NCBI GenBank assembly: GCA_964406665.1
Contig: CAYOSQ010000001.1
Location: forward strand, 135,412 to 199,411
Reading direction: 5' to 3'
Origin: an uncultured Planctomycetia bacterium
GTDB lineage: Bacteria; Omnitrophota; Gorgyraeia; VGKH01; JBHPFN01
DNA: 64,000 nucleotides
The number at the start of each line of letters is the position of its first letter. Positions within the stretch are counted from its first letter, which is position 1. Of this stretch, positions 3,099 through 47,349 are shown piece after piece. The notes below the pieces were generated by a model, which had not been told where the DNA came from, searched no databases, and saw only the letters and a program-made list of their open reading frames with translations. The translations under genes were made by a program, and so were the position numbers.

Positions 3099-4202
3099 AT
3101 GGATATCAATAAGAACCCAAAGAAATATCACAGGATAAAAAATTTACTTTCGTTCCTGGATATCATCTTACAGGGTTCAATTTTATTGATAATTACGTTA
3201 TCCGGATTCTCTCTTTTCTTGAAAAATCAGGTGTCTGGAGTGTTTGAGAACTTTTATTTAGTTGTTGCCGGATATATCTTTTTGCTTGCGACAATTTTTT
3301 ATTTTATTACATTGCCAATAAGCTTTTTTGAAAACTATTATTTAGAACATCAATATAATCTTTCAAATCAAAAAATAACAAGCTGGTTTAAAGATAGTCT
3401 AAAAGAAACTATCATTGGATTATTGATTTTGCTAATCTGTGGAGAGTTTGTCTATTTTATCTTACGTAATTTTTCGGAGATTTGGTGGATTTTTGCCGGA
3501 TTTTTCTGGATATTTATAAGTGTAGTGTTGGCAAAAATTACCCCAACGTTGTTGATACCGTTATTCTATAAGTATATTCCTTTGGAAAAAGAAGAGCTGA
3601 AGGATAAAATTTTAAAATTGTTCAATACGCGTAAAGTTAAGATTAAAGATGTATATGTAATTAAATTTTCGGAGAAAACTAAAAAAGCTAATGCCATGGT
3701 TTGCGGTTTTAGTAAAAACCGTAGGGTAATTTTAACCGACACGCTTATTAATAGTTTTTCCGACGAGGAGATTGAGCAAGTCGTTGCCCATGAACTAGGC
3801 CATTATTGTGGTAGAGACATAACGAAGTTACTTTTTTTAAATTCAGTATGTTGTTTCCTGGCATTTTTTGTTGCTGATAAGGTTATAAGCACAACAGCTT
3901 TAAGATTCGGTTTTAGCGGTTTAGATGATATTGCCTTTTTTCCGATTTTGCTGTTGAGTCTCGTTGGAGTTGCTTTTTTGCTTTTACCTTTTCGTAACTG
4001 CTTTTCCAGATTTTTAGAGAAACGAGCGGATTTGTTTAGTTTGCAACTTACCAAAAACTCCCCAGCATTTATATCAGCCATGAATAAATTAGGTAGTTTG
4101 AACCTTGCAGATTTTAAGCCTTCTATTTTAGTAGAAATTTTTCTCTACAATCATCCTCCGATTGGAAAGAGGATTAAATATGCAAAAGAATTTAAAATAT
4201 GA
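3099..4202 (+). CDS. M48-family (Ste24/HtpX-like) integral-membrane zinc metalloprotease
   Basis: Multi-TM N-terminus, HELGH zinc motif (VVAHELGHY), downstream glutamate (EKRAD) and the C-terminal NHPPIGKRI motif typical of M48. Confidence 0.7.
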   Translation: MDINKNPKKYHRIKNLLSFLDIILQGSILLIITLSGFSLFLKNQVSGVFENFYLVVAGYIFLLATIFYFITLPISFFENYYLEHQYNLSNQKITSWFKDSLKETIIGLLILLICGEFVYFILRNFSEIWWIFAGFFWIFISVVLAKITPTLLIPLFYKYIPLEKEELKDKILKLFNTRKVKIKDVYVIKFSEKTKKANAMVCGFSKNRRVILTDTLINSFSDEEIEQVVAHELGHYCGRDITKLLFLNSVCCFLAFFVADKVISTTALRFGFSGLDDIAFFPILLLSLVGVAFLLLPFRNCFSRFLEKRADLFSLQLTKNSPAFISAMNKLGSLNLADFKPSILVEIFLYNHPPIGKRIKYAKEFKI

Positions 4203-6151: not shown

Positions 6152-8972
6152 AATCAGAATATATTATCATTTTCAATTGTTTGGTTTGATCATAGCCGCT
6201 GTTATGTTTTTTTATTCATATGCATATGCTTATAAACAGCCGCATTATATTATTGACGCCACCTTAGATGTTTCCAAGCATGTTCTTCAGGCCAAGGAAA
6301 GGGTAACATTTACCAATAATATTGACAGAGAAATCAAAGAAGTATTCTTTCATATTTATCCCAATCGGAAATTTACTGATAAAGAAAAAGATTTTATGTT
6401 GCGTTACGGTGGATACTTCAAGGTGAATCTATATCCTGAAGGTTTTCAGAGTTCTAGCATGACAATTGATTCTATTAAAGAAAATGGAAAACACCTAGAT
6501 TTTGAGATTATTTCTGAAGATGAAACTATTTTGCGAATTGGCTTACCCCAGTCATTATCTAAGGGGAAGTCGGTTGACTTAGACATAGAGTTTTCAGTGG
6601 TTTTGCCTCATGCATATGGTAGGTTGGGTTGGAATGATAATGTAATTAGTCTTATGCGTTGGTATCCCATTCTTTCGGTTTTAGACGAGGAAGGATGGCA
6701 CAATTATCCTTTTTATCCTTATCATCAGCCATTTTTCTCTGATTCCGCCCGGTATCAAGTAAACTTAACAATTGCCAAAAATTATGTGGTTGCACATACA
6801 GGAAGCGTGCAGGAAGAATTTATAAATTCCGACGAAACAAAAACTATTAAAATAGATTCACAGCTGCCTGTGCGGGATTTTGCTCTTGCCGCCAGTCCTG
6901 ATTTCCGCATATTTTCACTAGAGCATAATGATGTAGAAATAAGATCATACTATTTGCCTGGAGATGATTTCCTTGGAAAAAAAGCAGCTGAGTTTTCTTT
7001 GGCTTTGATGGAATATTATGCTGACCGCTTTATTGATTATCCTTACAAGACATTTTCTATAGCTTCTACCTATCTAGGTTATGGAGGAAATCAATCTTCA
7101 GGAATTATTTTTATCGACACTCGAGTTAACAAACTTCCTAAATTCCTTCTACGATATTTTGATTTTCTTATTTCTCACGAGACAGGGCATCAATGGTTTT
7201 ATAATTTGGTAGGCTCTGATGAATATAAAGAGATGTGGATAGATGAGGGCATCAACTCTTATTTTATTTCAGAGTATTTAGAAGATAAATACGGTCCTGA
7301 TGCCCAAGTTATGATTTTACCTAAATGGCTTCAGCCCTTCGTTCCAAATTTTTCTTTTAAAAGTGGTAGAATCGTACGTTATTTTTACCTGGCTAAAAGA
7401 GGATTAGACAGGCCTATCTTAGGAAAGCTTTCTAGTTTTAAAGAACCAAGCAGCATTTTTGCTTTGGCTTACGGAAAAGGTTCTATTGTAATTGAGATGT
7501 TGCATTCTTTAGTTGGTGAAGAAGCTTTTGCAAGAATAATGAAACAATATTTTAATAAATATACTTTCAAAAATATTTCTGTTTCTGATTTTATCAGGAT
7601 TTGTGAAAAAGAAAGCGGTAAAGACTTAGATTGGTTTTTCGATCAGTGGCTTAATACAGATAAGACGTGCGACTATGCTGTTAATAAAGTAAATAAAAAC
7701 AAAGTTGTTTTAGAAAATCGCGGTGAGATAATTATGCCGGTTAAAACGGAAATTTATTTTTCTGATGGTTCAGTTTTGAAAGATTCTTGGAACGGAGAAG
7801 GAGAAAGTAAGGAAATAGAAATTTTAGAAACTAGTCGTATAGAAAAGATTGTGGTCGATCCTGATAAGGCGATGTTGGATTTAGATAGGACTAATAATTT
7901 TTGGCCACGCTTGTTTGAAACCAAAGCAGTTCCGCTTTACTACGCTGTATACGAAATCCCTGTAGTTTTACCTGAAGATTCATATAGCTTTATTTATGGT
8001 CCGGAATTTATGAAAAATAGTGTAGGTATGCGCGTGAGCTTGCAAAAGCCTTACGATAATAATTTAAGTCTATTTACCGGATATGATCTTAATTCCAGCG
8101 TAATAAAATCAGTACTGGGATTTGAACAGAGAAACTTATTTAATAAACAACTTGCCGGTGGAATTGAATTTTTCAGAGACGAAGATTTAAGTGGTAAAAA
8201 AGAGGATTTAGATGGCGGCAAAATTTATTTGCGACGAGAACTTTGGCCAGCAGCCTATGGATTAACAGAGGTCAACGATCACATTACTTTTTATCTTTTG
8301 CGTAACCGAAAATTTGAAGGAAGTTTTATTGCATCAGGCAGAGAGGATCAGGAAGATATTTCGTATTCTAGAAAAGATGAAGCCATTACAGGAATTGATT
8401 TTAGCTTAGATAGATCCGGACCGTATTTTGATCCCGATTCCGGATACAGAGCTAAAGTTACCTTAGAACATGCAGGACATTTTTTAGGTGGAAAAGAATC
8501 GTTTTCCAGAGGGACAGTTGATTTCACAGGATATCATGGATTTTTGCCAGAGCAAAAACTTGCACTGCATCTTAAGAGCGGATGGGGTTTTCCTTCGGAC
8601 AAAAATCTGTTTGAATTAGGCGGCGACGAAAGTTTAAGAGGGTATGGCCGCAAGGCAATGCGCGGATCCCGTTTTTTCTTAGGAAGCCTGGAATACCGCT
8701 TTCCTTTAATTAGACAAACAAATTTGCGTTTATTAGATAATATAATTTCCATTTCTGCTTTTCAAGGCGTTGCTTTTTTTGACGCTGGTAGAATATGGCA
8801 TGGAGATGTAGAAAAAAGTAATATTAAAAAAGATGCTGGTTTAGGTTTAAGGGTTCATGTTGATATTGGTTCTTATTTAGAGAAGCTTATTTTGCGAATT
8901 GATGTTGCCCAGGCGATTAATGAACCCAAAGAAGACCCGCATGTGTGGTTTGGAATAAGTCACGCATTTTAA
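6141..8972 (+). CDS. Fusion protein: M1-family (gluzincin) metallopeptidase domain plus C-terminal Omp85/D15-type outer-membrane beta-barrel
   Basis: Signal-peptide-like N-terminus. HETGH-X18-E (HETGHQWFYNLVGSDEYKEMWIDEG) is the exact M1 HEXXH-X18-E signature. The C-terminal 300 aa has alternating beta-strand character (LRGYGRKAMRGSRFFLGSLEYRFPL) and ends in ...GISHAF with a terminal Phe, typical of Omp85/BamA-family barrels. Confidence 0.7.
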   Translation: MKSRIRIYYHFQLFGLIIAAVMFFYSYAYAYKQPHYIIDATLDVSKHVLQAKERVTFTNNIDREIKEVFFHIYPNRKFTDKEKDFMLRYGGYFKVNLYPEGFQSSSMTIDSIKENGKHLDFEIISEDETILRIGLPQSLSKGKSVDLDIEFSVVLPHAYGRLGWNDNVISLMRWYPILSVLDEEGWHNYPFYPYHQPFFSDSARYQVNLTIAKNYVVAHTGSVQEEFINSDETKTIKIDSQLPVRDFALAASPDFRIFSLEHNDVEIRSYYLPGDDFLGKKAAEFSLALMEYYADRFIDYPYKTFSIASTYLGYGGNQSSGIIFIDTRVNKLPKFLLRYFDFLISHETGHQWFYNLVGSDEYKEMWIDEGINSYFISEYLEDKYGPDAQVMILPKWLQPFVPNFSFKSGRIVRYFYLAKRGLDRPILGKLSSFKEPSSIFALAYGKGSIVIEMLHSLVGEEAFARIMKQYFNKYTFKNISVSDFIRICEKESGKDLDWFFDQWLNTDKTCDYAVNKVNKNKVVLENRGEIIMPVKTEIYFSDGSVLKDSWNGEGESKEIEILETSRIEKIVVDPDKAMLDLDRTNNFWPRLFETKAVPLYYAVYEIPVVLPEDSYSFIYGPEFMKNSVGMRVSLQKPYDNNLSLFTGYDLNSSVIKSVLGFEQRNLFNKQLAGGIEFFRDEDLSGKKEDLDGGKIYLRRELWPAAYGLTEVNDHITFYLLRNRKFEGSFIASGREDQEDISYSRKDEAITGIDFSLDRSGPYFDPDSGYRAKVTLEHAGHFLGGKESFSRGTVDFTGYHGFLPEQKLALHLKSGWGFPSDKNLFELGGDESLRGYGRKAMRGSRFFLGSLEYRFPLIRQTNLRLLDNIISISAFQGVAFFDAGRIWHGDVEKSNIKKDAGLGLRVHVDIGSYLEKLILRIDVAQAINEPKEDPHVWFGISHAF

Positions 8973-30099: not shown

Positions 30100-33000
30100 A
30101 TGTCTGAAAAAGACAAAAAAATTAGTCCTTCAAAAAACCGAACTGTGAATCGGTCTGCCCAGAACGATTCAAGCTTACCTAAGAAACTCTCCAATTGTAA
30201 AAAGATAGAACAGGCATACCTAGAAACAGAATTACATTGCTCCAATGCACTTAATTCTTTATTTGATTCAATTCTTATTGTTGATAGAGAGTTAAAAATC
30301 ACTTTAATTAATGACGCCTTTAAAGAATGGAATAAAAAACTTGGTTTGTCAGATAACATGGTGGGTAAATACCTTTTTGAAGTATTCCCGTTTTTGCCGA
30401 ATAAGGTTAAACAGGAATATGATCAAGTCATTCAAAAAAGGGAATCTCTAATAACCGAGGAACACGTAAATGTTTTAGGAAGAAACTTGATAACAGAGGC
30501 TAGAAAGATTCCAGTTTTAAGAAACGGTGAGACAGTTCAAATAATTACCATGATTAGGGATATTACTGAGCGTAAAAAAATAGAAGAGAGAATAACTAAG
30601 ATAAACAAATGCTTTCTTGATTTTAGCTCGAACGCTGATGAGAATATAAATAAATTAGTTGCTCTTTGCGGAAAAATAATGGGAGGAAAATGTTCTGTTT
30701 ATAATAGGCTAGAAGGAGGATTGCTTTGCTCAGTGGGGAAATGGAACACCCCTAAGGATTATAATTCTATTAGTAATCCTGAGGGACATATTTGTTATGA
30801 TGTTATCAAGCGCGGCAGTGGAAAGTTCTGGATAGTACGCAATTTACCTCAGTCACGTTATGGGCAATCAGACCCAAATGTAAAAAGTTTCGGACTGCAG
30901 ACTTATATAGGTATTTCTGTTTCTTTCAACGGAAAGTGCGTAAGCGCACTATGTGTTGTATATCAAGAGGATGTTGTTATAGATAATGACGATAAGAAAT
31001 TTATGCAGCTGATTGCTTCTGCCATTGCTTCAGAAGAGAAGCGTAAAGAATCAGAAAAGGCTTTGTTGACCAGCAAGGAAAAATACAAGACCTTAACTCA
31101 TAATGTTAACATAGGCATATACAGGAATACAGCTGGTTCTCATGGTAAGTTTATTGAGGCGAATCCTGCGGTCATAAAAATGTTTGGATATAAAAACAGG
31201 CGTGATTTTTTGATTCGAAATGTCTGCGATTTGTACCAAAATAAGGCAGATCGAGAAAAGTTTAGCAGGAAGTTATTGGAAAAGGGATTTGTCAAGAATG
31301 AAGAATTACGCCTTAAGAAAAAAGACGGAAAGGCTTTTCTTGCATCTGTATCTGCCGTTGCTATAAAAGATGATAATGGCGAGATCAAATATTATGATGG
31401 AATAGTTGAAGATATAACCGAGAGAAAACAATCTGAAGTTAAATTGCGTAAATCAGAAGAAAAATACAGATTTCTTTTTGAAAAAAGTGCGATTCTTGCC
31501 ATAGTTGTCGGTGAGGATAAAAAGATCAAAGATGTAAATAAGTGGACTTGGGAAACTTTAGGATATGCAAGAAATGAAATAATTGGAAAAACAGCTTTAG
31601 ATTTCGTTGTTCCTGAAGAAAGAGAAAGAGCGCGAGAGGAATTAAAAAAATCATTTAACGATGAAATATCCTCCGGTGTTGGAATTAACGTACTTGCCAA
31701 AGATGGCAGTACGCATACGATTCTTTTTTCTCCCGGACAGGTTTTACTGCAGGAAAAAGGTAAGATTTCCAGCATACTTCTAACAGGTTTAGACATTACT
31801 GATCGTAAAATATCTGAAAAAAATCAGCTTGATATGACATCACATTTGCGCGCCGTGGTAGCTGCAACCGATGAACTTATTAATTGTTCGAATCTTGAAG
31901 TTGTTTACCGCTGGGCAGTAGAATTTGCCAGAAATAAGCTAGGACTAGAGAGATGCGCGATATTTTTGGAAGAAGGAGGTTATGTTCAAGGTATTTATGG
32001 AACTGATAAAAATGGTAATACAACAGACGAACATACGAATCGTTTTTTAAAGAATGAATCCTGGAAACAGCGTTTTAGGATGCTTCATCCTCAAGACCCA
32101 AGTTGGGTGGTAGTTAAGGAGCCGCAGCTAGAATGGGATGGAGATAAAACTGTTCAAATAGGAGAAGGTTGGATTGTAATAACGCCTATTCAATCTACCC
32201 AACGTCCTATAGGCGTGTTGGTTAATGATACAGCCATAAGCGGTTGTGTATTAGATCCTATGAAGCAAGATACCTTGGCTGTGTTTTGTTCTCTCTTGGG
32301 AAACATTATTGAGCGTAAACGTGCAGAAAATAAATTAGAGATAGTTAACAAAAAACTACTTCAGTCAAACAGAAGGTTGAAACAGCTTGCTTTAAGGGAT
32401 TCTCATACTGGATTATATAATCATAGATATTTGGAAGAAGCAATCAATTCTGAATTCGACCGCGCAAAACGCTATGCCTATTCTCTTTCTGTAATTATGC
32501 TCGACATTGATTATTTTAAATCCATAAATGATGTTTATGGCCATCAGTTTGGTGACCTTATATTAAAACAGTTTTCCCGTCAACTTAAGCGTCTGGTACG
32601 TAAATATGATACTGTTATTCGTTTTGGTGGAGAAGAGTTTATTATTCTTTCCCCGGGTATTGATAGATTTACAGCCATGATTTTAGCCCGTCGACTCTTA
32701 AATGTTGTTAATTTATGCAATTTCGGCAATCAGGAAAATAGTATAAAGTTAAAATTAAGTTTGTCTATTTCTTCCTATCCTGAAGATAATGCTTCTAAAG
32801 GAATGGATTTGATTAATCTGGTTGATCAGATTTTAAACAGGGCAAAAGAAGATGGAGGAGATCGGGTTTATTCTTCCCAGGAGATGGGTAAAGAAAAAGA
32901 TCCGGTATTAAACAAGGTGGAAAGAAGTACCGATATTAATTTCCTTCAGGAAAAAATAGATAAGCTTACCAGAAGGGCGAACCAGAGTTTGATAGAAGCA

Positions 33001-33531
33001 ATCTTTGCTTTTGCAAAGACGATAAAATTAAAAGACGATTATACTGGAGAACATGTTGAGGAGACTGTGTTTTTTGCAACTGAAATAGCCAGAAGGTTAA
33101 AGTTGACTAAATTTCAAATTGAGCAGATTCGTCAGGCTTCGAAGTTGCATGATCTAGGTAAAATCGGCGTAAGCGAGAGAATTTTACGTAAAAAATCTAA
33201 ATTAACCAAGAAAGAATTTGATGAGATAAAAAAACATACTTTAATTGGAGCTGATATATTAAGGCCGATTCATTTTCTGCATGATATTATTCCGCTAATA
33301 CTTTATCATCACGAACGCTGGGATGGTACAGGGTATCCTTATGGGTTAAAGAAAGAAGAAATACCTGTTGGGGCCCGTATAGTAGCCGTTGCCGATACTT
33401 TTCAAGCACTCACCTCTGATCGCCCATATCGCAAGGCATTTTCTAAGGCTAAGGCAAAAACAATTGTTAGAGAAAATGCTGGTACGCAGTTTGATCCTAA
33501 AATAGTAAATGCATTTTTAGCTTTAACATAG
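30100..33531 (+). CDS. Multidomain c-di-GMP turnover protein: PAS/PAC sensor domains, GGDEF diguanylate cyclase and HD-GYP phosphodiesterase
   Basis: Several PAS-like blocks. GGDEF domain with DIDYFKSINDVYGHQFGD and an intact RFGGEEFIIL (GGEEF) active site. C-terminal HD-GYP with HDLGKIGV and HHERWDGTGYPYGL. Confidence 0.85.
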   Translation: MSEKDKKISPSKNRTVNRSAQNDSSLPKKLSNCKKIEQAYLETELHCSNALNSLFDSILIVDRELKITLINDAFKEWNKKLGLSDNMVGKYLFEVFPFLPNKVKQEYDQVIQKRESLITEEHVNVLGRNLITEARKIPVLRNGETVQIITMIRDITERKKIEERITKINKCFLDFSSNADENINKLVALCGKIMGGKCSVYNRLEGGLLCSVGKWNTPKDYNSISNPEGHICYDVIKRGSGKFWIVRNLPQSRYGQSDPNVKSFGLQTYIGISVSFNGKCVSALCVVYQEDVVIDNDDKKFMQLIASAIASEEKRKESEKALLTSKEKYKTLTHNVNIGIYRNTAGSHGKFIEANPAVIKMFGYKNRRDFLIRNVCDLYQNKADREKFSRKLLEKGFVKNEELRLKKKDGKAFLASVSAVAIKDDNGEIKYYDGIVEDITERKQSEVKLRKSEEKYRFLFEKSAILAIVVGEDKKIKDVNKWTWETLGYARNEIIGKTALDFVVPEERERAREELKKSFNDEISSGVGINVLAKDGSTHTILFSPGQVLLQEKGKISSILLTGLDITDRKISEKNQLDMTSHLRAVVAATDELINCSNLEVVYRWAVEFARNKLGLERCAIFLEEGGYVQGIYGTDKNGNTTDEHTNRFLKNESWKQRFRMLHPQDPSWVVVKEPQLEWDGDKTVQIGEGWIVITPIQSTQRPIGVLVNDTAISGCVLDPMKQDTLAVFCSLLGNIIERKRAENKLEIVNKKLLQSNRRLKQLALRDSHTGLYNHRYLEEAINSEFDRAKRYAYSLSVIMLDIDYFKSINDVYGHQFGDLILKQFSRQLKRLVRKYDTVIRFGGEEFIILSPGIDRFTAMILARRLLNVVNLCNFGNQENSIKLKLSLSISSYPEDNASKGMDLINLVDQILNRAKEDGGDRVYSSQEMGKEKDPVLNKVERSTDINFLQEKIDKLTRRANQSLIEAIFAFAKTIKLKDDYTGEHVEETVFFATEIARRLKLTKFQIEQIRQASKLHDLGKIGVSERILRKKSKLTKKEFDEIKKHTLIGADILRPIHFLHDIIPLILYHHERWDGTGYPYGLKKEEIPVGARIVAVADTFQALTSDRPYRKAFSKAKAKTIVRENAGTQFDPKIVNAFLALT

Positions 33532-38360: not shown

Positions 38361-38388
38361 TTGAAATCCAGAAAAAATATAGTATACT
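38361..38388 (+). promoter_or_regulatory. Sigma70-like promoter TTGAAA-N16-TATACT driving the second riboswitch and giant gene
   Basis: CTATTGAAATCCAGAAAAAATATAGTATACTTTCATTGG. The -10 ends about 35 nt upstream of the aptamer. Confidence 0.4.
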
Positions 38389-38424: not shown

Positions 38425-38535
38425 TCCGCAGTTTGCGGAGAGGCAAACCATTTGTAAGAGTGGGACGCAAAGCCACGGGTCTCACAATTAATAATTAATT
38501 GTGTTTATTTGAGGCGGCCGGGTTGCCGAAAGGTA
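38425..38535 (+). promoter_or_regulatory. c-di-GMP-I (GEMM) riboswitch in the 5' leader of the 2900-aa giant protein gene
   Basis: RNA reads ...CUCCGCAGUUUGCGGAGAGGCAAACCAUUUGUAAGAGUGGGACGCAAAGCCACGGGUCUCAC...GAGGCGGCCGGGUUGCCGAAAGG. Its 5' half matches the V. cholerae Vc2 aptamer GGCAAACCAUUCGAAAGAGUGGGACGCAAAGCC at 30 of 33 positions, and the 3' half conserves GGCCGGGUUGCCGA. The putative translation start is about 110 nt downstream. Confidence 0.8.
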
Positions 38536-38646
38536 AAAAATGGATACCTTTATGTAGCCCAGTCGTTTTTTTATTGAAAATTTCAAAAGGAGAGCTAAAT
38601 AAGCTATAAAAATACATAAAACTCTGAAAGGGTCAGGGGGCAAGTA

Positions 38647-41600
38647 GTGGTTTCTATAAAAAAGTGGGGAAAATTGCGGAACAGATGTATGAGTGTGTTT
38701 ATTGCACTCATTTTTTTATTCAATTCACTTACCCCTGCATATGCCTGGAGGCCAGGTAATCGTGGTGAACAAAGTGCGCTTGAATCTTTCGCGGCCGGAA
38801 GTCTTTCCGGAGGAATATCAGCCCTTACCATAGCTATGAATCCTATTGCTGGTGCACTAAGCAGCATAGCTTCAAATGTAGCCAGTACGGTTGTATATTA
38901 CAATGATTATGACAGCCAGAGCAAGCCTTGGTTTGATCTAAAGCTTTTTATTTTCTGGGGTCCTAAGATAAAAACATTTACCAAGGCGGAAGCAATAGGT
39001 ATGATTGCCGGTATTGTAGTTGGTGCTGCAGCAGGGTTTGTTGATGGAGCCATAACTGGAAATTCTGAAGAAATAGCAGCAGATGCTGCAGCTGATACTG
39101 GTTCTACGGCAGTTGTAGGCACAACCATTGGTTCTGTGGCAACAGCTGCCAGTCAAAGCTTTTTTAATAGCATGCTCAACGTTTTAACCAATATCGGTAA
39201 CTGGGTATGGAAGAATATGATTGTTGCTTCTTATAAGAACGCCAAAGAGATTTTATTAAGCCCAATAAAGACTATCATCAAAATTGTAAAGAACTTCAGT
39301 AAGATCATGCGAAGGTCCTGGGATTTATCTTTGTCTCTAGTGAAATCATTGGCTAAAACTCCAGTTGTTATCGCTAAAAATATTAGTAAAATCGCTAGGT
39401 CTATCTATAAAACTGCTTACAAGACAGCAGAGGTATCTTTGCGTTTAGCAAAGGCGTTTGTCTGGAATATACCTACAGGAATGCTCAAAAATGCATATTC
39501 TATGCTTAAGGCAACTTTTAACACTCTTACATCGGGATCATTCTGGAGCAGGACGTTTAATACTGTAGGCAGTAAGGCAGGAGCTTTGTTTAGAACACTC
39601 AGAGGCGCAGCTTCTTCTGTAGCAAAAAACATCGAACAGCTCTTTACTCAACCACTCAGTATTACCTTAAAGAATATAGGAAGGTGGCTTAAAGAGTTAC
39701 CTGTTAATTCAATTAATAGGATAAAAACGCTGGCTAAAAAAATTGGACAGAGAATAAAAAATGTTTCTCAAGCCACCAGATTTACAAATCCTTATTATCA
39801 ATATGGTGCCTTAGGGATAAAAGGGCTTCCGGCGTTTTTTGTCCAGCTTGCAGCAGACATAACTTCTGCAATGTACAGAGCTGCTTTTCAAGATGCAACT
39901 AAGGAAATTCTTGAGAAAAAACTTGGTCTGGATGAAAGCATTGCAGAGATCGCCGCAACAGAACTGATTAATAAATTTGCCGCTAAAACAATCAATCATA
40001 ATATTCTTAAAGCATTCGGCTCTGCTTTTGGCTGGGGCATAACCGCATACGGTGGTTTCATAACCGGCGAGATGCAAGAGCGTCTAAAATCAATCGAAGA
40101 GCATGGAAACAACGGAATAGAAGTGCAGGGTATAGTCGTCTCAGAAGATTCTTCTAGTCCAGATACATCAACCCAAGCCTATAACATAAAACTCAAACAG
40201 CTTGTTGGCGCAGGTGCTTTATTAAAAGATGGCACCTGGGTAAGACTTAGTGATGTTGAAGATGCCTCAGAGATAGTAGGCATAGCTGTAGCAACCGATC
40301 GAGGTGTTATCTTAATTGAACCTAATGTAAATATCATCAGCGCAGTTCAGGGATACAAGCAGGCTTTTATACAGGTAGCCAGATTATATATGAGTACCAT
40401 ATCTATGCCTGCTTCACTGAATCAACCAAGTCAAGATGGTGCTTTATCTATGTTGGTTAAGATAGGTGTACTAAAGCTCTTAAGTTACGGTAGTGGCCAT
40501 AGGGGATCATTGGGTAAGATCTGGAAGAAAAAGATAGCAGAGTTAATAGGTAAGCTTGCATCAGAATCTGCAGACAGTCCTGTGCCATCAGAGGAGCAAC
40601 TTGCAGCTTCAGATGAAAGTGAAAAAACCGAAGAGTCTCGGGAAGAAGCTGTAGAGGTTGCTAGCGCTGAATCCGGGGCATCAGTCCAAGATCAAGAAAG
40701 CTCCTCTGAAGAATCATCATCAGAAGAATCTGCGTCAACTGGCAGGAGAGAGCTTGTGTTAGAAAGCATTTCTGATTCATTTGATTCAAGTGGTAGATAT
40801 AATCCTCAAGCACATCTTTTGCCTTTTGGTGACCATCCTTATGGCGGCGATGGAGGAGGTTCCGATGAGTCTGACGAATCCGGAGAAGAAGATGATTCTG
40901 TGGTTTCAAGCTTTAGCTTCGAAGGAGAAACATTTACATTTGATGATCTAAAAAAAGTAGGAAAAATTTATAGAAGTGGTAGAAAAACAGGGATTTTTAT
41001 TTCTAATGCTATTAGAAATGGTGGAGGCTTACTTTCAGGCGGTGAAGATGAAGAAAGCATTGAGAGCGACGGCGTTATTTATACCAAGGTTGAAAATAGA
41101 GAAGTTATGATTATAGATTTAGAAACAGGAGAGATTAAGCACTTGACTGGTTCTGTAGGAGTCGTTCTTGTTACCCTTAGCGATGGATCTTCCTATTTTG
41201 CATTAGTGGATTTCGTGCAGTTGAAAAAAGATATTCAGGAGAGAAATAATTTTACTGACAGGGGAACTGAAATTTTAGCTTTTCTTCCACAGCCACTAGA
41301 AGAAATAAAGCCCCTACCCCCAAAGGAAGAAGAACAAGAAGAGCAGCCACAACTTCCCGAGCCAGTACATAAGAGAGAAGTTACTGTGGGAGGATCAGCT
41401 GTAACGGCTGCTTCAGAAGAGAGTTTTGATGAATCTGATGAATGGGGAGAGGTTACGCTGAGGCCTGAACCACAAACTCCTGAAGAAGAGCAGGAAGCAG
41501 AAGATAGAAAGGGCGGAGAGCGATTTAGTGTTGATTTAGCAGATGTCCCCGGAGCAGCGCTAGATGTTGGAGAGGCAGTTGTAAAAGTGCCTTTTGGGGT

Positions 41601-44600
41601 AGTAAAAGGAGTTGGCGGTCTTGCTGGATCTTTGCTTGGTCTTAAGAAAAAAACTCCAGCAGAATTAGCACGTGAGGCTGCAGAAGATGAAATTAAAATA
41701 GGGGAGCAGATTTTAGAGGAATTTAATGATTCAGATTCTGAAATTACTATTTCAGTAGATAATGAAGGAACTTCAGGAAGGTGTGGTGGTGCTTGTAGGC
41801 TTGAGGTTGATGATCCTTATGAAAGACCTTATCCGGAATATGAACATACTGGAAGATGTTTAAAAAGAGCCCTAGGAAGAGACCCTCAAAGAGCTAACCA
41901 GCTTAAAGCAATGATTAAACAGGTTGTTGCTTTAGGCAATGAGCTTATCGGTGATCCTAAGTTTCGTATTAAACATGTTAAGTTTACTGATAAATTTCCT
42001 TCCCATGCCAATTATTATACTAATACAATTTACCTTAATGTTGATGATTTTCTTTTGGGTTCACACAAAATAAAATACGATGAAGAAGGTTGTGCATCTG
42101 GGTTATGTTCTGAAGAAAGTGCTGGGGAACTTACACATCATGAAGCTTCCCATTTTATTGTTGATAGCAATGTTGATTTACAGCTTGATGAAGTTTATGG
42201 AAAACTTCTTGTTATGATGCAGGGTATTCCGGGATTTGCCCTTATGCCAGGTTCTCGACACACAGCACATCATTATTCAAAGACTAATCAAGAAGAATTT
42301 GCTGCAACGGGATTGGAACCGATTGTTAATTCTGGCAAAGGCAGTGCTTTTGCTGATTCAGTCCTAGCTTGGAAGCGTCGCGGTGATCCTAAGGCAGATG
42401 TTGCAGGTAATTTATATGTAAAATTTTCCCAGGATATTGCCGGACTTGAAGCTGATGAACGAGTGACTGCTCTTTATCCTCCGGGCAGTTTTGAATATAA
42501 AACTCCTGATAATTTAGATCATTATGTGCGCGAGGTGCTTTTAGATAAAGGTTTAGCTGAGCTTGTTAGAGAAAATATTTATTATGGATTTCATGCGGCG
42601 ATGCTTCATGCCCCGGATGCATTAATGGCTTCTTTGGAAAAAGTTATAAACGATCCGTCTTTAACAGCAAGTGATGTTCATACAATATTGGTTGGTTTAA
42701 ATGCTATAGATAAAAACTATAATAGTGAAAACTCTGTTGGTTTAAATTTATCGCGCATGTATCCTCATATGTTGCGCTTGATTGCTGATATGCAAAATGC
42801 AGTTAATCAGGGATATCCTAAGGAATCAGTTGGCAAAGTTGCTCCTTTAAGAAATGCTTCAGGAGAAGAGTTAGGCAGGATCGAATTTTCTGATATGGAT
42901 ATGATTAAGGGAAGCCATTTCTTCCAGTGGATGATACAGAATATTCCTAATATGGAAAACGGAATAAATCTGGATATCGCATTAAGCTTGTTGAACTCTC
43001 TCGATCCCGAGGGCGGCAATTCACGCGAGCAGTTGCGCAGCGCTTTAGCAGGGATCGAAATACCTGCTTTTGCTACAAGATTCAATTTGTCTCAATTGAG
43101 CTCTAGCGATCTTCAGCAGATGGACCCTGTTGAATTTATTGCAGGTTTAATCCGCGCCCAGCAATCTATGGATGCATTATCAGCTAATGAAGATTTTGCA
43201 GCAGAATTAGGTGGTAAAAGAATAGTTCTTAAAACTGGAGAGGCAAGAGATCTATTGCATTCTTCTAACGATGCATCTGAGCCGATTTCTATCGGAATTG
43301 ATCTGGCCAAAGATCAAAACCAGCTAGTAGCTGAGGCAATAGCAGGTGCAGGTTTAATCCTTGCGCCGAATCTACTTTTTTCCGATGAATTTAAACAGGT
43401 TCTCTCAGAGAATTCATTTACAGATATTTCTATATTGTTTAATCAAGATGGTAGTTTGGTTCAGCGCGGTGATTCTCAGGAGCTATTTCGAGTTTTAATA
43501 CCTGCATATGTATTGCATGGTGAAGATTTTGTTAATTACATTGAAAGTTATAAGGGTAAAAACCCAGATGCTTATAATACATTGTTGAGAGCCTTCGTTT
43601 TAATTCGTGAGCAAGTTTTTAAAGGGCACACATTTTTGGAAAATGGGGTAGACCCTTTTGCAGGAACCAAGTTAGGAGATATACCTGCAGTAACAGAGTT
43701 TAATTTGCAGAATTGGTTAAATGGTATTTTAAGACAAGAAGGCTCGGGATCATCTTCTTCAGATTCAACAAATATTAAAACTGGCTCACTTAATTTAGAG
43801 AGTAGTCATCAGAGTCGAGAACTTGTATTAGCAAGTGCTATGGATTCATTCAGCATGCAGGATAGATACAATCCTCAGGCACATCTGTTGCCCATGGAGC
43901 CACATCCAGTATCAGCCTCGGGAGAAGAATCTCAAGATCCTGTTGGGTCTATTACTGCAGGAGAATTTGCTCAATTTGGTCATATCTTGCGAAATAAGAT
44001 TTTACCAGACCTACAGTTAAGAGAAGAGTTCTTGCAAGAAGTAGTTAGTGCTCTTGAAACCGGAAATATGCGAATGCTTTCACTAGTGTTTAATACGACT
44101 GCTAACTTCTCTGATGTCTCAGAAATAGTTCATAGGCCAATGATTGAACATATTGCTTCGATGTCATCTTCTCAAGTAGAGAGGCTAGAATTTACTGATC
44201 AGATTATTCAAGGCTTACAGCAGAATAATAGGTTCAGCGCAAAACTAAAACAAGTTATCAGGGATCCGCGATTCGCTAAATCTGCAGATAAGCTTTTAGG
44301 TGTATTGTTTAAGTTTGATCCTGAAACATCCGGTATGATCGCCGCGGAGTTAGGAAATCATTATATCTGGAATTTACTGGATACTAAAGAGCGGCAACAG
44401 CAGCGCGATAGTGTTGATCGTTTTCTTAAAGATTATGGCTGGGAGATAGGCATGTGGGGATATGATCAAGATTTTTTATGGGAACCGAGTTTGACAACTG
44501 GTTCTCTTGACGGCCATAGTAGAAGATGGCTTAGAGTACCAATCAAAAGATCTTTTAATTTCAAAGAAGGAGGTTGGAGTGAAGAAAGTAGTCATGGCGT

Positions 44601-47349
44601 TACAGGAACAACTTGGTCAATTGGTTATCGTAAAGAAGGTTTAAGATTACCAAAAGATAGCCATGGCGAGATCCCTGAAGGATACCACTACTACGAGGTA
44701 GATCCAGATCCAGTTATTAACCACGAATTTTTCACACTTAACTATGCAAAAGGGGTAGCAAGCTTTGGTGTTGGACTTGGAAAACTTAGTCATATTTTCC
44801 GCGGCGGTAGGTACGATCCAGAAATAGGAGAAATTCGAGTTAACAAAACAGTAGGTTTGTTAAGTCTTGGTATTGGCTTCGGAGGTCCAGTTACTTATAA
44901 AGGTACCTATTTGGGACATTTTGGGTTTGAAGCTTATGTTGATAAAAAATTTGGATCTACGCATTCTAGTGCAGGAACAGATGTGGGGGTTGCCCTTGAA
45001 TACGGTTTACCATTAAGTCGGATGATCCCGAGCATCCGTTCTTCAAAACCCAAAACACCTCTTTGGGGACCAGGAACAATGCCAACACAGCCATCCAGTT
45101 CTAGCTCTACTGCTGAAGAGAAAAAGCCAAAAGAAACATCTTTGAATATTTCACCAGAGTTACAAAAACCTGCTGAACAACATGCTTCAACAGGAGGTTC
45201 TGGAATACAAATGGCTTCAGCTTCTCGAGAGCTTGTTTTAGAAGGTATCCCTGATTCTTTCGATTTAAGCGGCAGCTACAATCCTCAAACACATCTTTTG
45301 CCTTTAGAGCCGCATGGAAGAGCATCCGGGGGTGGATTAGATAGCAGGGCTAGAGCTGTAATGGAAAAAAGACAGAGAAGCGTGCAAACAAGAAGGGCAT
45401 ATGAAAAAAAGAGGGCTCAAATAGTGGGCGTAGAAGATACGCCGGATCTTTCTTTTGTAGATCGCAGTAATATATTTTTAGCGAAGATTTATGATAAGAC
45501 AGGTTTGGGCAATGGGAAAGCTAGAGAGATTAGAAATGATGCATATAATAAAGCAGTAGAAATTGGAGATGCTGAATCAGCTGCAGGAATCGCAGAAGAG
45601 CTTGGCGACCAGCTTTCTGGAGAAGATCTTTTTTCTAGAGCCGATATAAGATATGCGCAGGCAGATTCAGTTTTAACCAACCAGGCATCAGTGGACAGCA
45701 TATCCCTTGAAAGAGTTCATGTTAAAGCAGTGCAGATGCATGAGGGTGCTGGTGATGAAGCTCTGAAAGTAGGAGAAGCTGCGCTCGAAGCATTTGATTC
45801 AGCAATAGAAAATAAAGAAGGCCTCCCTGGTGGAAATGCATCATATCATATTAAGGCAGAAGAACATTATGTAAACGCACAAGAATGGATAGAATCAAGT
45901 AGCTTTTTTGATCCAACGGTAATTGCGAGGTTTAGAGAAAAGCAGTCTCAATCAGGGGAAGGTGCAGCCCGCATCCATATGGCAAAGACGTTATTCGAGC
46001 ATAATGAACCGATTGAAGCCCTTAACCATCTTTCTAGGATAACAATAAACGAAGAAAATAGAGACTGGGTGCAACAGGAATTGGATGAGGTTGATGTTCA
46101 TTTAGAAAGTGGAGATATGTTAAGAAAAAATTATCTTTGGAGATCTCGCAAGCTATTTGATTTTGTAATCGGAGGATTAAAAAGCAACAGCCCGTATGTT
46201 GATGTATTATCTAGTTCTTCAGCACCTACAATAGATGAAGATAATAGGCTACGTTTTAACTATTCAGAAAATGACAGCAAGGATCAATGGATCGGTAAAA
46301 CAGCTGTGATTTGGGGAGATGATATAATTGATGGTGGGAATAATTTAATTTCGGCATTTAGAAGAGATGGATTTAATAATTTATTTTATTTTTATGAAAC
46401 ACCTAATCGAAATGAATATTTTTATTCACCTAAAAATCGGTTCCAACAATTGAGACGTCAAAAAGGCATCTTGGCAGATGCTGCCTTAATTCCGTCAACA
46501 ATGCAAGATATTGTTGCTAGAATTTATGCAGATAGAAGTCTTGCTGATAGAGTGGCTTTTGGTCAACATGGAGACAGGAAAGTAGATACCTATTTTCCTT
46601 TTCTTAAATATGGATTCTCTCAGCTTAATCCAGGTAATTACGCTAGATATTATGCTCCTATTAGGGCATTGGTTAGAGGAGAAGCGGAAATTTATAATTG
46701 CTTTTTGGCTTCTGACGGCGTTCCAGTCGCTGATACGCATTATTACAATCGTAGAAATAGTAGGCCTTATACTTCTATGGTGTTAGAGGGTAGATTTGAA
46801 AATAAGAGAAATACATGGAGTAGGCAGTTGAGAAATTGGTTTGCAAAACGTACTCTGCCAGGGCATGTTTTGCGTCTTCCCCCTATGCTTACGAGTCTTG
46901 AAGATAGCACATTAAGAGTTATGGATTACAGAAATTTTTTAAATAGTGAGATTGAACAGATTGAAAGAATTCGAGGAAGCACTCCTCATTATAGAGATTT
47001 GACCTGGGTTACTGGAAATCAATATCCAAAGCTGCGAGCAAGAGACACAGAAGCTAATTTTAGGAATTTTTTACGTAAGCAACCACAGAATTTAGAGCTT
47101 TTCTATAGAATCCTTGAGATATCTGATAGCAGATATTTGACTAAAGAGGTTCAAAGAATTCAAACCCAAGTAGATAGAATAGGAGATGAAGATGATTTAA
47201 TGCAGATGATGAATTATCCAACTGGTCAGAAATTTACTGAGCTTATAAAAGGTGTTCAAAAAGCGCTTGGTGTAGAAGCTGATGGAGTTTTTGTCCCTGG
47301 TGGAGAAACTGATGCTGCCCTTAAGAAGGTTGAAGCGCAGATAAGATAG
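38647..47349 (+). CDS. Giant secreted or envelope protein (2900 aa) with signal peptide, Gly/Ala-rich and Lys-rich amphipathic N-terminal region, acidic Ser/Glu linkers, three internal conserved repeats, an HExxH motif and a C-terminal peptidoglycan-binding (PG_binding_1-like) domain
   Basis: One uninterrupted 8.7 kb ORF with a GTG start 8 nt after an AGGGGG RBS. N-terminus MVSIKKWGKLRNRCMSVFIALIFLFNSLTPAYA is a signal peptide. Repeats RELVLxxxxDSFxxxxxYNPQxHLLPxxxHP occur at about aa 700, 1725 and 2195. LTHHEASHF at about aa 1165 fits HExxH. The C-terminal FTELIKGVQKALGVEADGVFVPGGETDAALKKVEAQ matches the PGBD-1 consensus. Confidence 0.8.
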   Translation: MVSIKKWGKLRNRCMSVFIALIFLFNSLTPAYAWRPGNRGEQSALESFAAGSLSGGISALTIAMNPIAGALSSIASNVASTVVYYNDYDSQSKPWFDLKLFIFWGPKIKTFTKAEAIGMIAGIVVGAAAGFVDGAITGNSEEIAADAAADTGSTAVVGTTIGSVATAASQSFFNSMLNVLTNIGNWVWKNMIVASYKNAKEILLSPIKTIIKIVKNFSKIMRRSWDLSLSLVKSLAKTPVVIAKNISKIARSIYKTAYKTAEVSLRLAKAFVWNIPTGMLKNAYSMLKATFNTLTSGSFWSRTFNTVGSKAGALFRTLRGAASSVAKNIEQLFTQPLSITLKNIGRWLKELPVNSINRIKTLAKKIGQRIKNVSQATRFTNPYYQYGALGIKGLPAFFVQLAADITSAMYRAAFQDATKEILEKKLGLDESIAEIAATELINKFAAKTINHNILKAFGSAFGWGITAYGGFITGEMQERLKSIEEHGNNGIEVQGIVVSEDSSSPDTSTQAYNIKLKQLVGAGALLKDGTWVRLSDVEDASEIVGIAVATDRGVILIEPNVNIISAVQGYKQAFIQVARLYMSTISMPASLNQPSQDGALSMLVKIGVLKLLSYGSGHRGSLGKIWKKKIAELIGKLASESADSPVPSEEQLAASDESEKTEESREEAVEVASAESGASVQDQESSSEESSSEESASTGRRELVLESISDSFDSSGRYNPQAHLLPFGDHPYGGDGGGSDESDESGEEDDSVVSSFSFEGETFTFDDLKKVGKIYRSGRKTGIFISNAIRNGGGLLSGGEDEESIESDGVIYTKVENREVMIIDLETGEIKHLTGSVGVVLVTLSDGSSYFALVDFVQLKKDIQERNNFTDRGTEILAFLPQPLEEIKPLPPKEEEQEEQPQLPEPVHKREVTVGGSAVTAASEESFDESDEWGEVTLRPEPQTPEEEQEAEDRKGGERFSVDLADVPGAALDVGEAVVKVPFGVVKGVGGLAGSLLGLKKKTPAELAREAAEDEIKIGEQILEEFNDSDSEITISVDNEGTSGRCGGACRLEVDDPYERPYPEYEHTGRCLKRALGRDPQRANQLKAMIKQVVALGNELIGDPKFRIKHVKFTDKFPSHANYYTNTIYLNVDDFLLGSHKIKYDEEGCASGLCSEESAGELTHHEASHFIVDSNVDLQLDEVYGKLLVMMQGIPGFALMPGSRHTAHHYSKTNQEEFAATGLEPIVNSGKGSAFADSVLAWKRRGDPKADVAGNLYVKFSQDIAGLEADERVTALYPPGSFEYKTPDNLDHYVREVLLDKGLAELVRENIYYGFHAAMLHAPDALMASLEKVINDPSLTASDVHTILVGLNAIDKNYNSENSVGLNLSRMYPHMLRLIADMQNAVNQGYPKESVGKVAPLRNASGEELGRIEFSDMDMIKGSHFFQWMIQNIPNMENGINLDIALSLLNSLDPEGGNSREQLRSALAGIEIPAFATRFNLSQLSSSDLQQMDPVEFIAGLIRAQQSMDALSANEDFAAELGGKRIVLKTGEARDLLHSSNDASEPISIGIDLAKDQNQLVAEAIAGAGLILAPNLLFSDEFKQVLSENSFTDISILFNQDGSLVQRGDSQELFRVLIPAYVLHGEDFVNYIESYKGKNPDAYNTLLRAFVLIREQVFKGHTFLENGVDPFAGTKLGDIPAVTEFNLQNWLNGILRQEGSGSSSSDSTNIKTGSLNLESSHQSRELVLASAMDSFSMQDRYNPQAHLLPMEPHPVSASGEESQDPVGSITAGEFAQFGHILRNKILPDLQLREEFLQEVVSALETGNMRMLSLVFNTTANFSDVSEIVHRPMIEHIASMSSSQVERLEFTDQIIQGLQQNNRFSAKLKQVIRDPRFAKSADKLLGVLFKFDPETSGMIAAELGNHYIWNLLDTKERQQQRDSVDRFLKDYGWEIGMWGYDQDFLWEPSLTTGSLDGHSRRWLRVPIKRSFNFKEGGWSEESSHGVTGTTWSIGYRKEGLRLPKDSHGEIPEGYHYYEVDPDPVINHEFFTLNYAKGVASFGVGLGKLSHIFRGGRYDPEIGEIRVNKTVGLLSLGIGFGGPVTYKGTYLGHFGFEAYVDKKFGSTHSSAGTDVGVALEYGLPLSRMIPSIRSSKPKTPLWGPGTMPTQPSSSSSTAEEKKPKETSLNISPELQKPAEQHASTGGSGIQMASASRELVLEGIPDSFDLSGSYNPQTHLLPLEPHGRASGGGLDSRARAVMEKRQRSVQTRRAYEKKRAQIVGVEDTPDLSFVDRSNIFLAKIYDKTGLGNGKAREIRNDAYNKAVEIGDAESAAGIAEELGDQLSGEDLFSRADIRYAQADSVLTNQASVDSISLERVHVKAVQMHEGAGDEALKVGEAALEAFDSAIENKEGLPGGNASYHIKAEEHYVNAQEWIESSSFFDPTVIARFREKQSQSGEGAARIHMAKTLFEHNEPIEALNHLSRITINEENRDWVQQELDEVDVHLESGDMLRKNYLWRSRKLFDFVIGGLKSNSPYVDVLSSSSAPTIDEDNRLRFNYSENDSKDQWIGKTAVIWGDDIIDGGNNLISAFRRDGFNNLFYFYETPNRNEYFYSPKNRFQQLRRQKGILADAALIPSTMQDIVARIYADRSLADRVAFGQHGDRKVDTYFPFLKYGFSQLNPGNYARYYAPIRALVRGEAEIYNCFLASDGVPVADTHYYNRRNSRPYTSMVLEGRFENKRNTWSRQLRNWFAKRTLPGHVLRLPPMLTSLEDSTLRVMDYRNFLNSEIEQIERIRGSTPHYRDLTWVTGNQYPKLRARDTEANFRNFLRKQPQNLELFYRILEISDSRYLTKEVQRIQTQVDRIGDEDDLMQMMNYPTGQKFTELIKGVQKALGVEADGVFVPGGETDAALKKVEAQIR
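40741..40860 (+). repeat. Intragenic protein repeat 1 (GRRELVLESISDSFDSSGRYNPQAHLLPFGDHPYGG)
   Basis: One of three about 35-aa conserved motifs inside the giant ORF, each flanked by acidic/Ser-rich low-complexity linkers. Confidence 0.6.
43807..43920 (+). repeat. Intragenic protein repeat 2 (SRELVLASAMDSFSMQDRYNPQAHLLPMEPHP)
   Basis: Same motif as repeat 1. Confidence 0.6.
45221..45320 (+). repeat. Intragenic protein repeat 3 (SRELVLEGIPDSFDLSGSYNPQTHLLPLEPHG)
   Basis: Same motif as repeat 1. Confidence 0.6.

Follow-up and report, generated by a model that had tools for sequence, protein, structure and literature searches.

The subject of this analysis is an 8.7-kb gene in a 64-kb stretch of bacterial DNA (contig CAYOSQ010000001.1, positions 135,412 to 199,411; the whole stretch is called the window below), which encodes a 2,900-residue protein and is preceded by a class I riboswitch aptamer for cyclic di-GMP (c-di-GMP). 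The gene was found to belong to a family of five distinct loci, the window included, and in all four loci that retain upstream sequence such a c-di-GMP-I aptamer (52-66 bits) lies 70-120 nt before the start codon. According to the best reading, for which a probability of roughly 0.55 is estimated, the product is a c-di-GMP-induced, Sec-exported and inner-membrane-held protein that shows a lineage-specific, acidic, modular payload for contact with surfaces, hosts or prey. An earlier note on this DNA, made from the sequence alone, had proposed a c-di-GMP-gated, cell-wall-tethered and possibly proteolytic giant surface protein; it mentioned neither the homologous family with its common riboswitch nor three repeats within the protein.

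The leader riboswitch and the gene family

The gene and the signals in front of it comprise the following features.

38361..38388, forward strand: promoter-like site TTGAAA-16-TATACT, resting on 10/12 consensus matches only, about 45 nt upstream of the aptamer
38432..38530, forward strand: c-di-GMP-I (GEMM-I) riboswitch aptamer (RF01051, 66.1 bits versus a gathering score of 35)
38511..38572, forward strand: terminator-like hairpin followed by U7, predicted expression platform (folding, overlap with the aptamer)
38635..38640, forward strand: Shine-Dalgarno-like AGGGGG, 6 nt ahead of the GTG start (sequence match)
38647..47349, forward strand: coding sequence of the 2,900-aa protein (open reading frame read, product found on further contigs)

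The aptamer matches the full RF01051 model (1-87) with E = 1e-10. The 5' arm of the terminator (GGCGGCCGGGUUGCC) doubles as the 3' strand of the aptamer's second helix, and because this strand is common to both, aptamer and terminator are mutually exclusive. In folding calculations, the terminator conformer of the window leader reached -52.0 kcal/mol versus -38.4 kcal/mol with the 3' arm of the terminator blocked, and the terminator conformer was favoured by 12-22 kcal/mol in all four leaders. A simple terminator scan overlooked this hairpin on account of its long, interrupted stem. Since the aptamer's 3' strand is also the terminator's 5' arm, the leader is predicted to be an ON switch in which the ligand-bound aptamer would permit read-through. 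With regard to the ligand, all leaders of the giant genes carry AGGCAAA and UUGCCGA, UGCC at the 3' end is conserved, and the nucleotide just ahead of the first helix, unpaired in the model, is a G in every copy. This G and a C near the 3' end are positions which we take to favour c-di-GMP over cyclic GMP-AMP (cGAMP).

The relatives of the gene were collected in two ways. A word-indexed search of 5.8 billion proteins returned, besides the protein itself, a single relative (P0002, 3,073 aa) from the same metagenome, the two being alike only in the first ~640 residues (38% identity). Four further matches came from pattern scans across collections of genomes and metagenomes, namely L003, a contig of a Candidatus Omnitrophota metagenome-assembled genome that stems from a deep lake cast; L006, in which the L003 locus is present at greater length (2,583 aa); L004, a locus of activated sludge (2,859 aa); and L005, which is cut at its 3' end. 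The aptamers of the relatives (L001, L003/L006 and L005) score 51.8-53 bits, the 3' strand of the aptamer again serves as 5' arm of the next hairpin in L001, L005 and L006, and between the hairpins of L006 and L005 one base pair has changed in a compensatory way (G>A / C>U). Because all four evaluable loci carry an overlapping aptamer and terminator, the link between riboswitch and gene family is conserved and not accidental. The c-di-GMP gating put forward in the earlier note is supported at the sequence level by this arrangement and by the 66.1-bit score of the window aptamer.

Only residues 1-640 are common to the window protein and its relatives. Beyond residue ~640, the three full-length relatives are alike over most of their length, including a C-terminal region of ~900 aa at 33-42% identity, and a comparison of the relatives' C-terminal profile with the last 2,260 aa of the window protein yielded an hhalign probability of 0.5%. 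The relatives further carry a conserved extension ahead of the signal peptide (...N(M/I)GG(R/K)GEIL(I/V)FS...), which the window gene does not have. Each of the three full-length relatives has a further gene starting 9-25 nt past the stop codon of the giant gene; it encodes a membrane-anchored Peptidase_C39 protein (E ~1e-12), which in L004 continues for at least 920 aa. No C39 homologue was found in the 64-kb window. The Gly-Gly pair of the extension could be the target of this C39 peptidase.

L001 1329-1450; L004 22-130; L005/L006 9914-10030: extension ahead of the signal peptide in the relatives (window counterpart 38611-38646)
L001 10575-11519; L004 8604-11363; L006 17674-18879: C39 peptidase gene downstream of the giant gene

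Upstream of the GTG start of the window gene, another frame reads ...KTLKGSGGK-stop, possibly a remnant of the extension after decay.

The coding sequence itself consists of 2,900 codons without any internal stop. Its GTG start is favoured over Met15 because the KKW directly following it aligns with P0002. An out-of-frame reading of 1.1 kb of the same DNA met 33 stops; stop codons are expected at an estimated ~6% for this composition, and 2,900 open codons are not attainable by chance. The 2,886-aa product counted from Met15 is identical on four contigs from separate assemblies and at least two samples, among them contigs of 128 kb (JGI) and 284 kb (held by NCBI as well), and the window differs from its copy in an ENA assembly (L002) by 3 mismatches over 28,661 bases. 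This recurrence in independent assemblies excludes an assembly error or frameshift for practical purposes. The single uninterrupted 8.7-kb frame described earlier is thereby borne out, and the splitting of it by a frameshift or assembly error, which the earlier note had named as its refutation, did not materialise. With just 3 differences in 28.7 kb, a ratio of nonsynonymous to synonymous substitution rates (dN/dS) between assemblies was not obtainable. That there is no functional gene at all, the locus being an assembly chimera or a decaying gene with a meaningless C-terminal part of 2,250 aa, might be argued from the C-terminal 78% being without homologue and from the extension and the C39 partner gene missing at the window gene. 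However, an 8.7-kb open frame in DNA of 40% GC cannot persist by chance, and the same product on four contigs, the 3 mismatches between two assemblies, the protein-level conservation of the internal repeats (see below) and the intact promoter, riboswitch, Shine-Dalgarno site and signal peptide all contradict such a reading, which can be regarded as effectively refuted already.

The N-terminal module and the payload

The conserved N-terminal module is made up of the following parts.

38647..38745, forward strand: Sec-type signal peptide, aa 1-33, read from the sequence, with a predicted signal peptidase I site between AYA and W
38797..39060, forward strand: two conserved Gly/Ala/Ser-rich hydrophobic segments, aa 51-85 and 114-138 (hydropathy, alignment)
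39199..39786, forward strand: cationic amphipathic-helix array, aa 185-380 (composition, hydrophobic moment)
39787..40566, forward strand: rest of the conserved N-terminal module, aa 381-640 (family alignment)

The signal peptide combines a basic n-region (MVSIKKWGKLRNR) with a 15-residue h-region (CMSVFIALIFLFNSL) and ends in TPAYA before W, with small residues at -3 and -1; the sequence PAYAWRPGN across the cleavage site is invariant in all five relatives. The two hydrophobic segments reach Kyte-Doolittle peaks of 1.47 (aa 53-75) and 1.92 (aa 114-132) and recur in all family members. The first one contains a central NP, and the second is a glycine zipper (M.AGIV.GAAAGF) with four GxxxG in the window protein. 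They are separated by a short, basic loop of net charge +1 to +3 (YY.DY....P.F..K.F...KTF.K.E), and the stretch after the second segment is acidic or neutral. We infer that the two segments form a membrane hairpin anchor; judged from hydropathy and the positive-inside rule only, this hairpin would have its loop in the cytoplasm and place the protein from residue ~135 onward outside it.

The array that follows (aa 185-380) has a net charge of +30 and a pI of 11.4, and its mean helical hydrophobic moment of 0.469 compares to 0.228 +/- 0.03 in shuffles (z = 8.1). The interval from the second hydrophobic segment (TM2) to a YxxYG motif, which contains this array, varies from 109 to 311 aa among the relatives. 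Residues 381-640 hold the motifs Y.YG..G.KGL and LD...AE in a helical stretch, along with a small unit that looks like beta structure, and end in an amphipathic helix.

The remaining 2,250 aa form the payload, in which globular-looking stretches are parted by Ser/Glu/Gly-rich linkers and which is divided into modules by three copies of a 30-residue motif (RELVL..DSF....YNPQxHLLP).

40747..40839, forward strand: repeat 1, RELVLESISDSFDSSGRYNPQAHLLPFGDHP, aa 701, in a Ser/Glu/Gly linker
41734..43746, forward strand: payload module B, aa 1030-1700, with Cys cluster and HEASH
43816..43908, forward strand: repeat 2, RELVLASAMDSFSMQDRYNPQAHLLPMEPHP, aa 1724
43909..45096, forward strand: payload module C, aa 1755-2150, without homologue or family match
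45226..45318, forward strand: repeat 3, RELVLEGIPDSFDLSGSYNPQTHLLPLEPHG, aa 2194
45319..47346, forward strand: payload module D, aa 2225-2900, without support for any family

Several features of this layout had been described beforehand. The signal peptide followed by a Gly/Ala-rich hydrophobic stretch and the strongly acidic Ser/Glu linkers (aa 640-1030, net charge -58) were found as stated. The basic amphipathic segment was confirmed in its character, its length being ~195 aa rather than the ~250 aa given. The broader picture of a very large secreted protein with charge-segregated modules thus holds for a genuine protein with a Sec-type export signal.

The copies of the repeat share 21-23 of 40 residues pairwise, and their DNA is 57-65% identical, with 9-11 identical residues encoded by different codons. 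As the residues are identical despite diverged DNA and codons, the motif has been kept by selection on the protein. No further copy was found elsewhere in the window or in the relatives. Lying between modules, the motif may be a site of processing or docking, and its invariant Asn-Pro recalls known self-cleaving Asn-Pro bonds, such as those in NPTH of FlhB/YscU and at Asn42-Pro43 of reovirus mu1. Alternatively, the protein could be a polyprotein precursor from which three payload proteins are freed after export by cleavage at the three motifs, either by itself at Asn-Pro or by a protease. Each motif is located in a Ser/Glu/Gly linker of low complexity, precisely where one globular-looking module gives way to the next, and is conserved in the protein despite its diverged DNA, and scission at Asn-Pro is an established self-processing chemistry. 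In addition, peptidase processing has been proposed for giant proteins of Omnitrophota (10.1101/2023.11.21.568195), and the three full-length relatives have the C39 peptidase gene directly downstream. Conserved linear motifs, however, may equally be docking or binding sites, the motif is missing from the relatives and from the rest of the window, and a peptidase partner gene is absent near the window gene. Polyprotein cleavage, which is compatible with the best reading, is considered possible yet rather unlikely.

Between the window and the ENA assembly copy, a difference at 45277-45279 (aa 2211) changes YNPQTH in repeat 3 to YKPQTH; this Asn to Lys exchange is natural variation at a position required by the self-cleavage model. 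Readings of the repeats as Sortase B-type (NPQTN) or PEP-CTERM signals were rejected, as NPQ(A/T)H occurs internally three times and is followed by acidic/Gly-rich linkers and no membrane segment; a Sortase B sorting signal would be C-terminal and lead into a hydrophobic segment with a basic tail.

Similarity searches with the payload gave nothing of use for its assignment. When aa 1000-2190 were compared exhaustively (phmmer) with 1.84 billion representative proteins, the protein itself was the only match. Searches of Pfam, NCBIfam and PHROGs with the whole protein, eight segments, four sub-regions and the three relatives yielded nothing meaningful. Only chance-level matches were obtained among PDB sequences with the whole protein, the HExxH region, the C-terminal 72 aa, aa 2530-2740, the N-terminal profile A3 and the relatives' C-terminal profile A5 as queries. 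Scans of viral contigs with the N-terminal module and module B brought up no relatives, so that there is no sign of a phage origin, e.g., as tape-measure protein. On the basis of these comparisons, the family is new and without detectable relationship to any described one.

Two stretches of the payload invited structural comparisons. In module C, aa 1960-2125 (~44524-45020) are Gly/aromatic-rich with alternating hydrophobics (44% G, Y, F, W, T and V in aa 2001-2100) and look like a small beta-barrel or beta-sandwich; an outer-membrane beta-barrel was rejected, as it was suggested by composition only and a profile search found no match. In module D, the pattern VAFGQHGD ... (45 aa) ... EIYNCFLASDG (aa 2632-2688, ~46540-46710) prompted a comparison with caspase-like peptidases of clan CD, with their His-Gly / Cys dyad behind hydrophobic strands, which was dismissed for want of Pfam or PDB support.

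A rival reading, which follows the earlier note, is that of a peptidoglycan-tethered surface zinc metalloprotease, with HEASH as catalytic motif and the last 60 aa as PG_binding_1 anchor. The motif is present as stated by the earlier note (aa 1165-1169, nt 42139-42153), in the only Cys-containing stretch of the protein (five Cys, aa 1046-1154), which is also rich in His. Given 56 His and 225 Glu, HExxH is expected 0.084 times by chance and occurs at least once in 8.1% of composition-matched shuffles; by itself, it is not above chance. Neither Pfam nor NCBIfam nor PDB sequences gave a peptidase match at E <= 10, the isolated 196-aa HExxH region included, and a single-sequence AlphaFold2 model of aa 1030-1345 was unusable (predicted local distance difference test score, pLDDT, of 40.8). 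As candidates for a third zinc ligand, Glu1215/1216 sit 46-47 aa past the second His and an HTAHH cluster lies at aa 1205-1209, with no family alignment fixing the ligand position. A hydrophobic strand (NTIYLNV) is found ~35 aa upstream of HEASH and a Glu in NQEEFAATG downstream of it, a spacing which may resemble that in anthrax lethal factor (M34) and MtfA-type gluzincins and keeps a proteolytic role conceivable.

For the C-terminal anchor, Pfam searches at E <= 10 with the last 121 aa, the last 361 aa and the whole protein remained empty, no peptidoglycan (PG)-binding chain occurred among the PDB matches at E <= 10, and BLASTP against the PG-binding domain of a phage endolysin (in an approximate sequence) gave no alignment. 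The AlphaFold2 model of aa 2751-2900 was likewise unusable (pLDDT 37.6). By inspection, the C-terminal IKGVQKALGVEADGVFVPGGETDAALKKV is loosely like the first two helices of PG_binding_1; the resemblance covers at most about 40 aa within the last ~45 (from ~nt 47212) and is ended by the stop codon, which would leave the domain, a three-helix bundle of about 60-70 aa, truncated. With zero PG_binding_1 signal in any test, neither this assignment nor the cell-wall tethering derived from it is supported. The metalloprotease as a whole, for which the Cys- and His-bearing context of HExxH, the strand and Glu spacing and the C-terminal likeness can be cited, becomes improbable in view of the missing peptidase and PG_binding_1 matches, the frequency of the motif in shuffles and the unusable model. 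Two attractive annotations without support, the peptidoglycan anchor and the metalloprotease, are corrected in this way.

A separate, unrelated HExxH (HEKDH) is present in the giant protein of L004 at aa 2722 (~8170-8300), in a region that is absent in the other relatives.

Proposed mechanism and known systems

According to the best reading, transcription would end at the leader terminator as long as c-di-GMP is low. A rise in c-di-GMP, which in most bacteria marks the attached or sessile state, would let the bound aptamer block the terminator, so that the 8.7-kb mRNA is made. After export, the signal peptide would be cleaved between AYA and W, and the two glycine-zipper-like hydrophobic segments would form an inner-membrane hairpin with its basic loop inside the cell. 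All of the protein past residue ~135 would then be located outside the cytoplasm, with the cationic array on a membrane surface and the acidic, linker-separated payload extending outward. There, the payload would mediate contact with a surface, host or prey cells and may include an enzymatic, zincin-like module, the three motifs serving as processing or docking sites between modules. An envelope or cell-contact function is considered most likely.

Several points weigh against this reading. The ON direction is deduced from the arrangement of the leader, and it has been cautioned that the ON/OFF direction of c-di-GMP riboswitches cannot safely be extrapolated between species from sequence (PMC6366702); moreover, the U-run is weak in L005 and L006 (CUUUCUAUUUG). 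The proposed topology draws on hydropathy and the positive-inside rule only, and should the first hydrophobic segment fail to span the membrane, most of the protein would end up in the cytoplasm. The searches revealed no domain of an adhesin or enzyme and none for binding, the contact role being argued from analogy and architecture, and the crossing of the outer membrane by a 2,900-aa protein is left without explanation. Finally, the host is most probably an Omnitrophota bacterium, a placement made only via a homologue.

The regulatory pattern as such, a riboswitch-gated large surface protein, is known, and it is the protein family that is undescribed. A close parallel is the Bc2 RNA of Bacillus thuringiensis, a class I c-di-GMP ON riboswitch acting by antitermination, which controls the collagen adhesion protein Cap (PMC4933901; PMC6366702). 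Like bc2/cap, the window locus places a class I aptamer and an intrinsic terminator before a single gene for a large, presumably exported protein, and termination would be the default, with ligand leading to read-through. In contrast to the Gram-positive host and the collagen-binding and cell-wall-anchor domains of Cap, the window belongs to a probably diderm Omnitrophota bacterium, and its protein has no recognisable domain; also, Bc2 has been characterised by experiment, whereas the ON behaviour of the window leader is a prediction. In Clostridioides difficile, c-di-GMP riboswitches gate the adhesins CD2831 and CD3246 as well as the HExxH metalloprotease Zmp1/PPEP-1 which processes them (PMC6200980; PMC6366702). 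This regulon shares the theme of the earlier note, a c-di-GMP-gated surface protein plus a zinc protease, although adhesin and protease are separate proteins under opposite switches there, unlike the single protein of the window. PPEP-1, which we take to be an M34-family enzyme, is recognisable as such, in contrast to the HExxH region of the window protein with its lack of any peptidase profile match.

LapA-type adhesins offer a further comparison. Secreted by a type I system, LapA contains RTX repeats but no Sec signal peptide, and its control through LapD/LapG is post-translational. The window protein resembles these adhesins as a very large, c-di-GMP-dependent surface protein by prediction, LapA likewise having an N-terminal retention element and undergoing proteolytic release, but it differs in its Sec signal peptide and its riboswitch control.

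The Omnitrophota, known for very large proteins that defy annotation, are uncultured nanobacteria which may live as predators or depend on hosts. Giant proteins described in this phylum measure from 10,000 to over 100,000 aa and combine numerous transmembrane helices with SecA-like domains (10.1101/2023.11.21.568195; 10.64898/2026.06.07.730766), the archaeovorin and dockerin types exceeding 10,000-30,000 aa and carrying SecA_DEAD or dockerin/discoidin domains (10.1101/2023.11.21.568195). C39 peptidases have been associated with them as well (10.1101/2023.11.21.568195; 10.64898/2026.06.07.730766). The window protein shares with these giants the phylum, as far as it can be placed, the signal peptide and transmembrane architecture and the largely unannotatable sequence, and C39 occurs as a separate gene in three of its relatives. 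It differs by its 2,900 aa, by the absence of any Pfam or SecA-like domain and by having at most two to three hydrophobic segments. As to the giant genes of uncultivated lineages alluded to in the earlier note, the size of the window protein is far below the >10,000-30,000 aa of the Omnitrophota giants. Neither of the two reports (10.1101/2023.11.21.568195; 10.64898/2026.06.07.730766) mentions riboswitches or c-di-GMP, and a full-text literature search combining Omnitrophota with riboswitch terms found nothing relevant; nor did the literature covered yield anything on the regulation of these giants.

The best reading may be extended to an Omnitrophota-specific delivery system, in which a c-di-GMP-triggered anchor carries an exchangeable payload, the zipper and cationic device inserts into a membrane, and the lineage-specific payload is cut at the three Asn-Pro motifs into separate effectors upon attachment to host or prey. 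Such cutting would involve self-processing chemistry or a protease undescribed for motifs of this kind, and the extension is of low probability.

What the best reading offers is a testable statement on the timing of production, as a conserved ON-type c-di-GMP riboswitch that can be read from the sequence is tied to a family of ~3,000-aa, predicted exported proteins. The leader RNA of ~150 nt can be assayed in vitro without culturing the organism, and the 2,250-aa payload with its three inter-module motifs provides a concrete target for structure prediction and proteomics.

Neighbouring genes and the second riboswitch

The genes around the giant gene have housekeeping, lipid and nucleotide-sugar functions and differ between the loci. 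As these neighbours are unrelated and locus-variable, the giant gene is seen as a self-contained single-gene unit. The next gene downstream in the window encodes an NAD-dependent (sugar) epimerase, and no peptidase partner gene is found nearby. The window is rich in components of c-di-GMP signalling, with proteins of the PilZ and PAS-GGDEF-HD types and one more c-di-GMP-I riboswitch.

18573-18496, reverse strand: second c-di-GMP-I riboswitch (61.5 bits)
18419-10753, reverse strand: four-gene operon behind the second riboswitch, with type-IV-pilin-like N-termini (MNRKAFTLFE..., KKGFVLIG..., KCGFLLVG...)
30100-33531: PAS-GGDEF-HD protein of 1,143 aa, 5 kb upstream of the giant gene, with a likely role in c-di-GMP turnover

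Pretoxin-HINT / intein-like Hint domains occur in two products of the operon, once in that of 425 aa and twice in that of 529 aa, with Cys-rich flanks of the CGNE(V/I)CE type. The terminator of the second riboswitch (CCCAUCCA/UGGAUGGG plus U6) has no overlap with the aptamer, which suggests an OFF logic and thus the opposite of the giant gene. These opposite predicted logics suggest a c-di-GMP-controlled switch between two surface programmes.

The operon also bears on a different role of the giant protein, in which a predatory or epibiotic cell would use it as an effector against membranes or as a weapon like the polymorphic toxins. Its conserved N-terminal module, with the glycine zipper and the cationic helices reminiscent of antimicrobial peptides, would insert into a target membrane or permeabilise it, followed by lineage-specific, exchangeable payloads of a toxic or degradative kind. 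Polymorphic toxins combine a conserved N-terminal trafficking part with an exchangeable C-terminus. Similarly, the window protein and its relatives have the N-terminal ~640 aa in common, while their C-terminal regions have been exchanged altogether, the amphipathic array is strongly cationic with a weak match to the CAP18 LPS-binding peptide (E = 0.88), and two pilin-like proteins with pretoxin-HINT domains stand behind the second riboswitch. A predatory lifestyle has also been proposed for Omnitrophota (10.1101/2023.11.21.568195). In contrast to polymorphic toxins, however, neither the gene nor its surroundings show a known domain of the toxin, pretoxin or immunity kind, and the exchanged part measures 2,250 aa rather than being a small terminal domain. 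The gene directly downstream is the sugar epimerase instead of a small immunity-like gene, secretion-system genes are not linked, and the position of the membrane-active part beside the signal peptide is explained more simply by an anchor in the producer's own membrane. Such a weapon is deemed distinctly unlikely.

Elsewhere in the window, a 650-aa protein with N-terminal PilZ domain (4199-6151) is followed by a 943-aa fusion of Peptidase_M1 with an Omp85-type barrel (6141-8972), an unusual combination.

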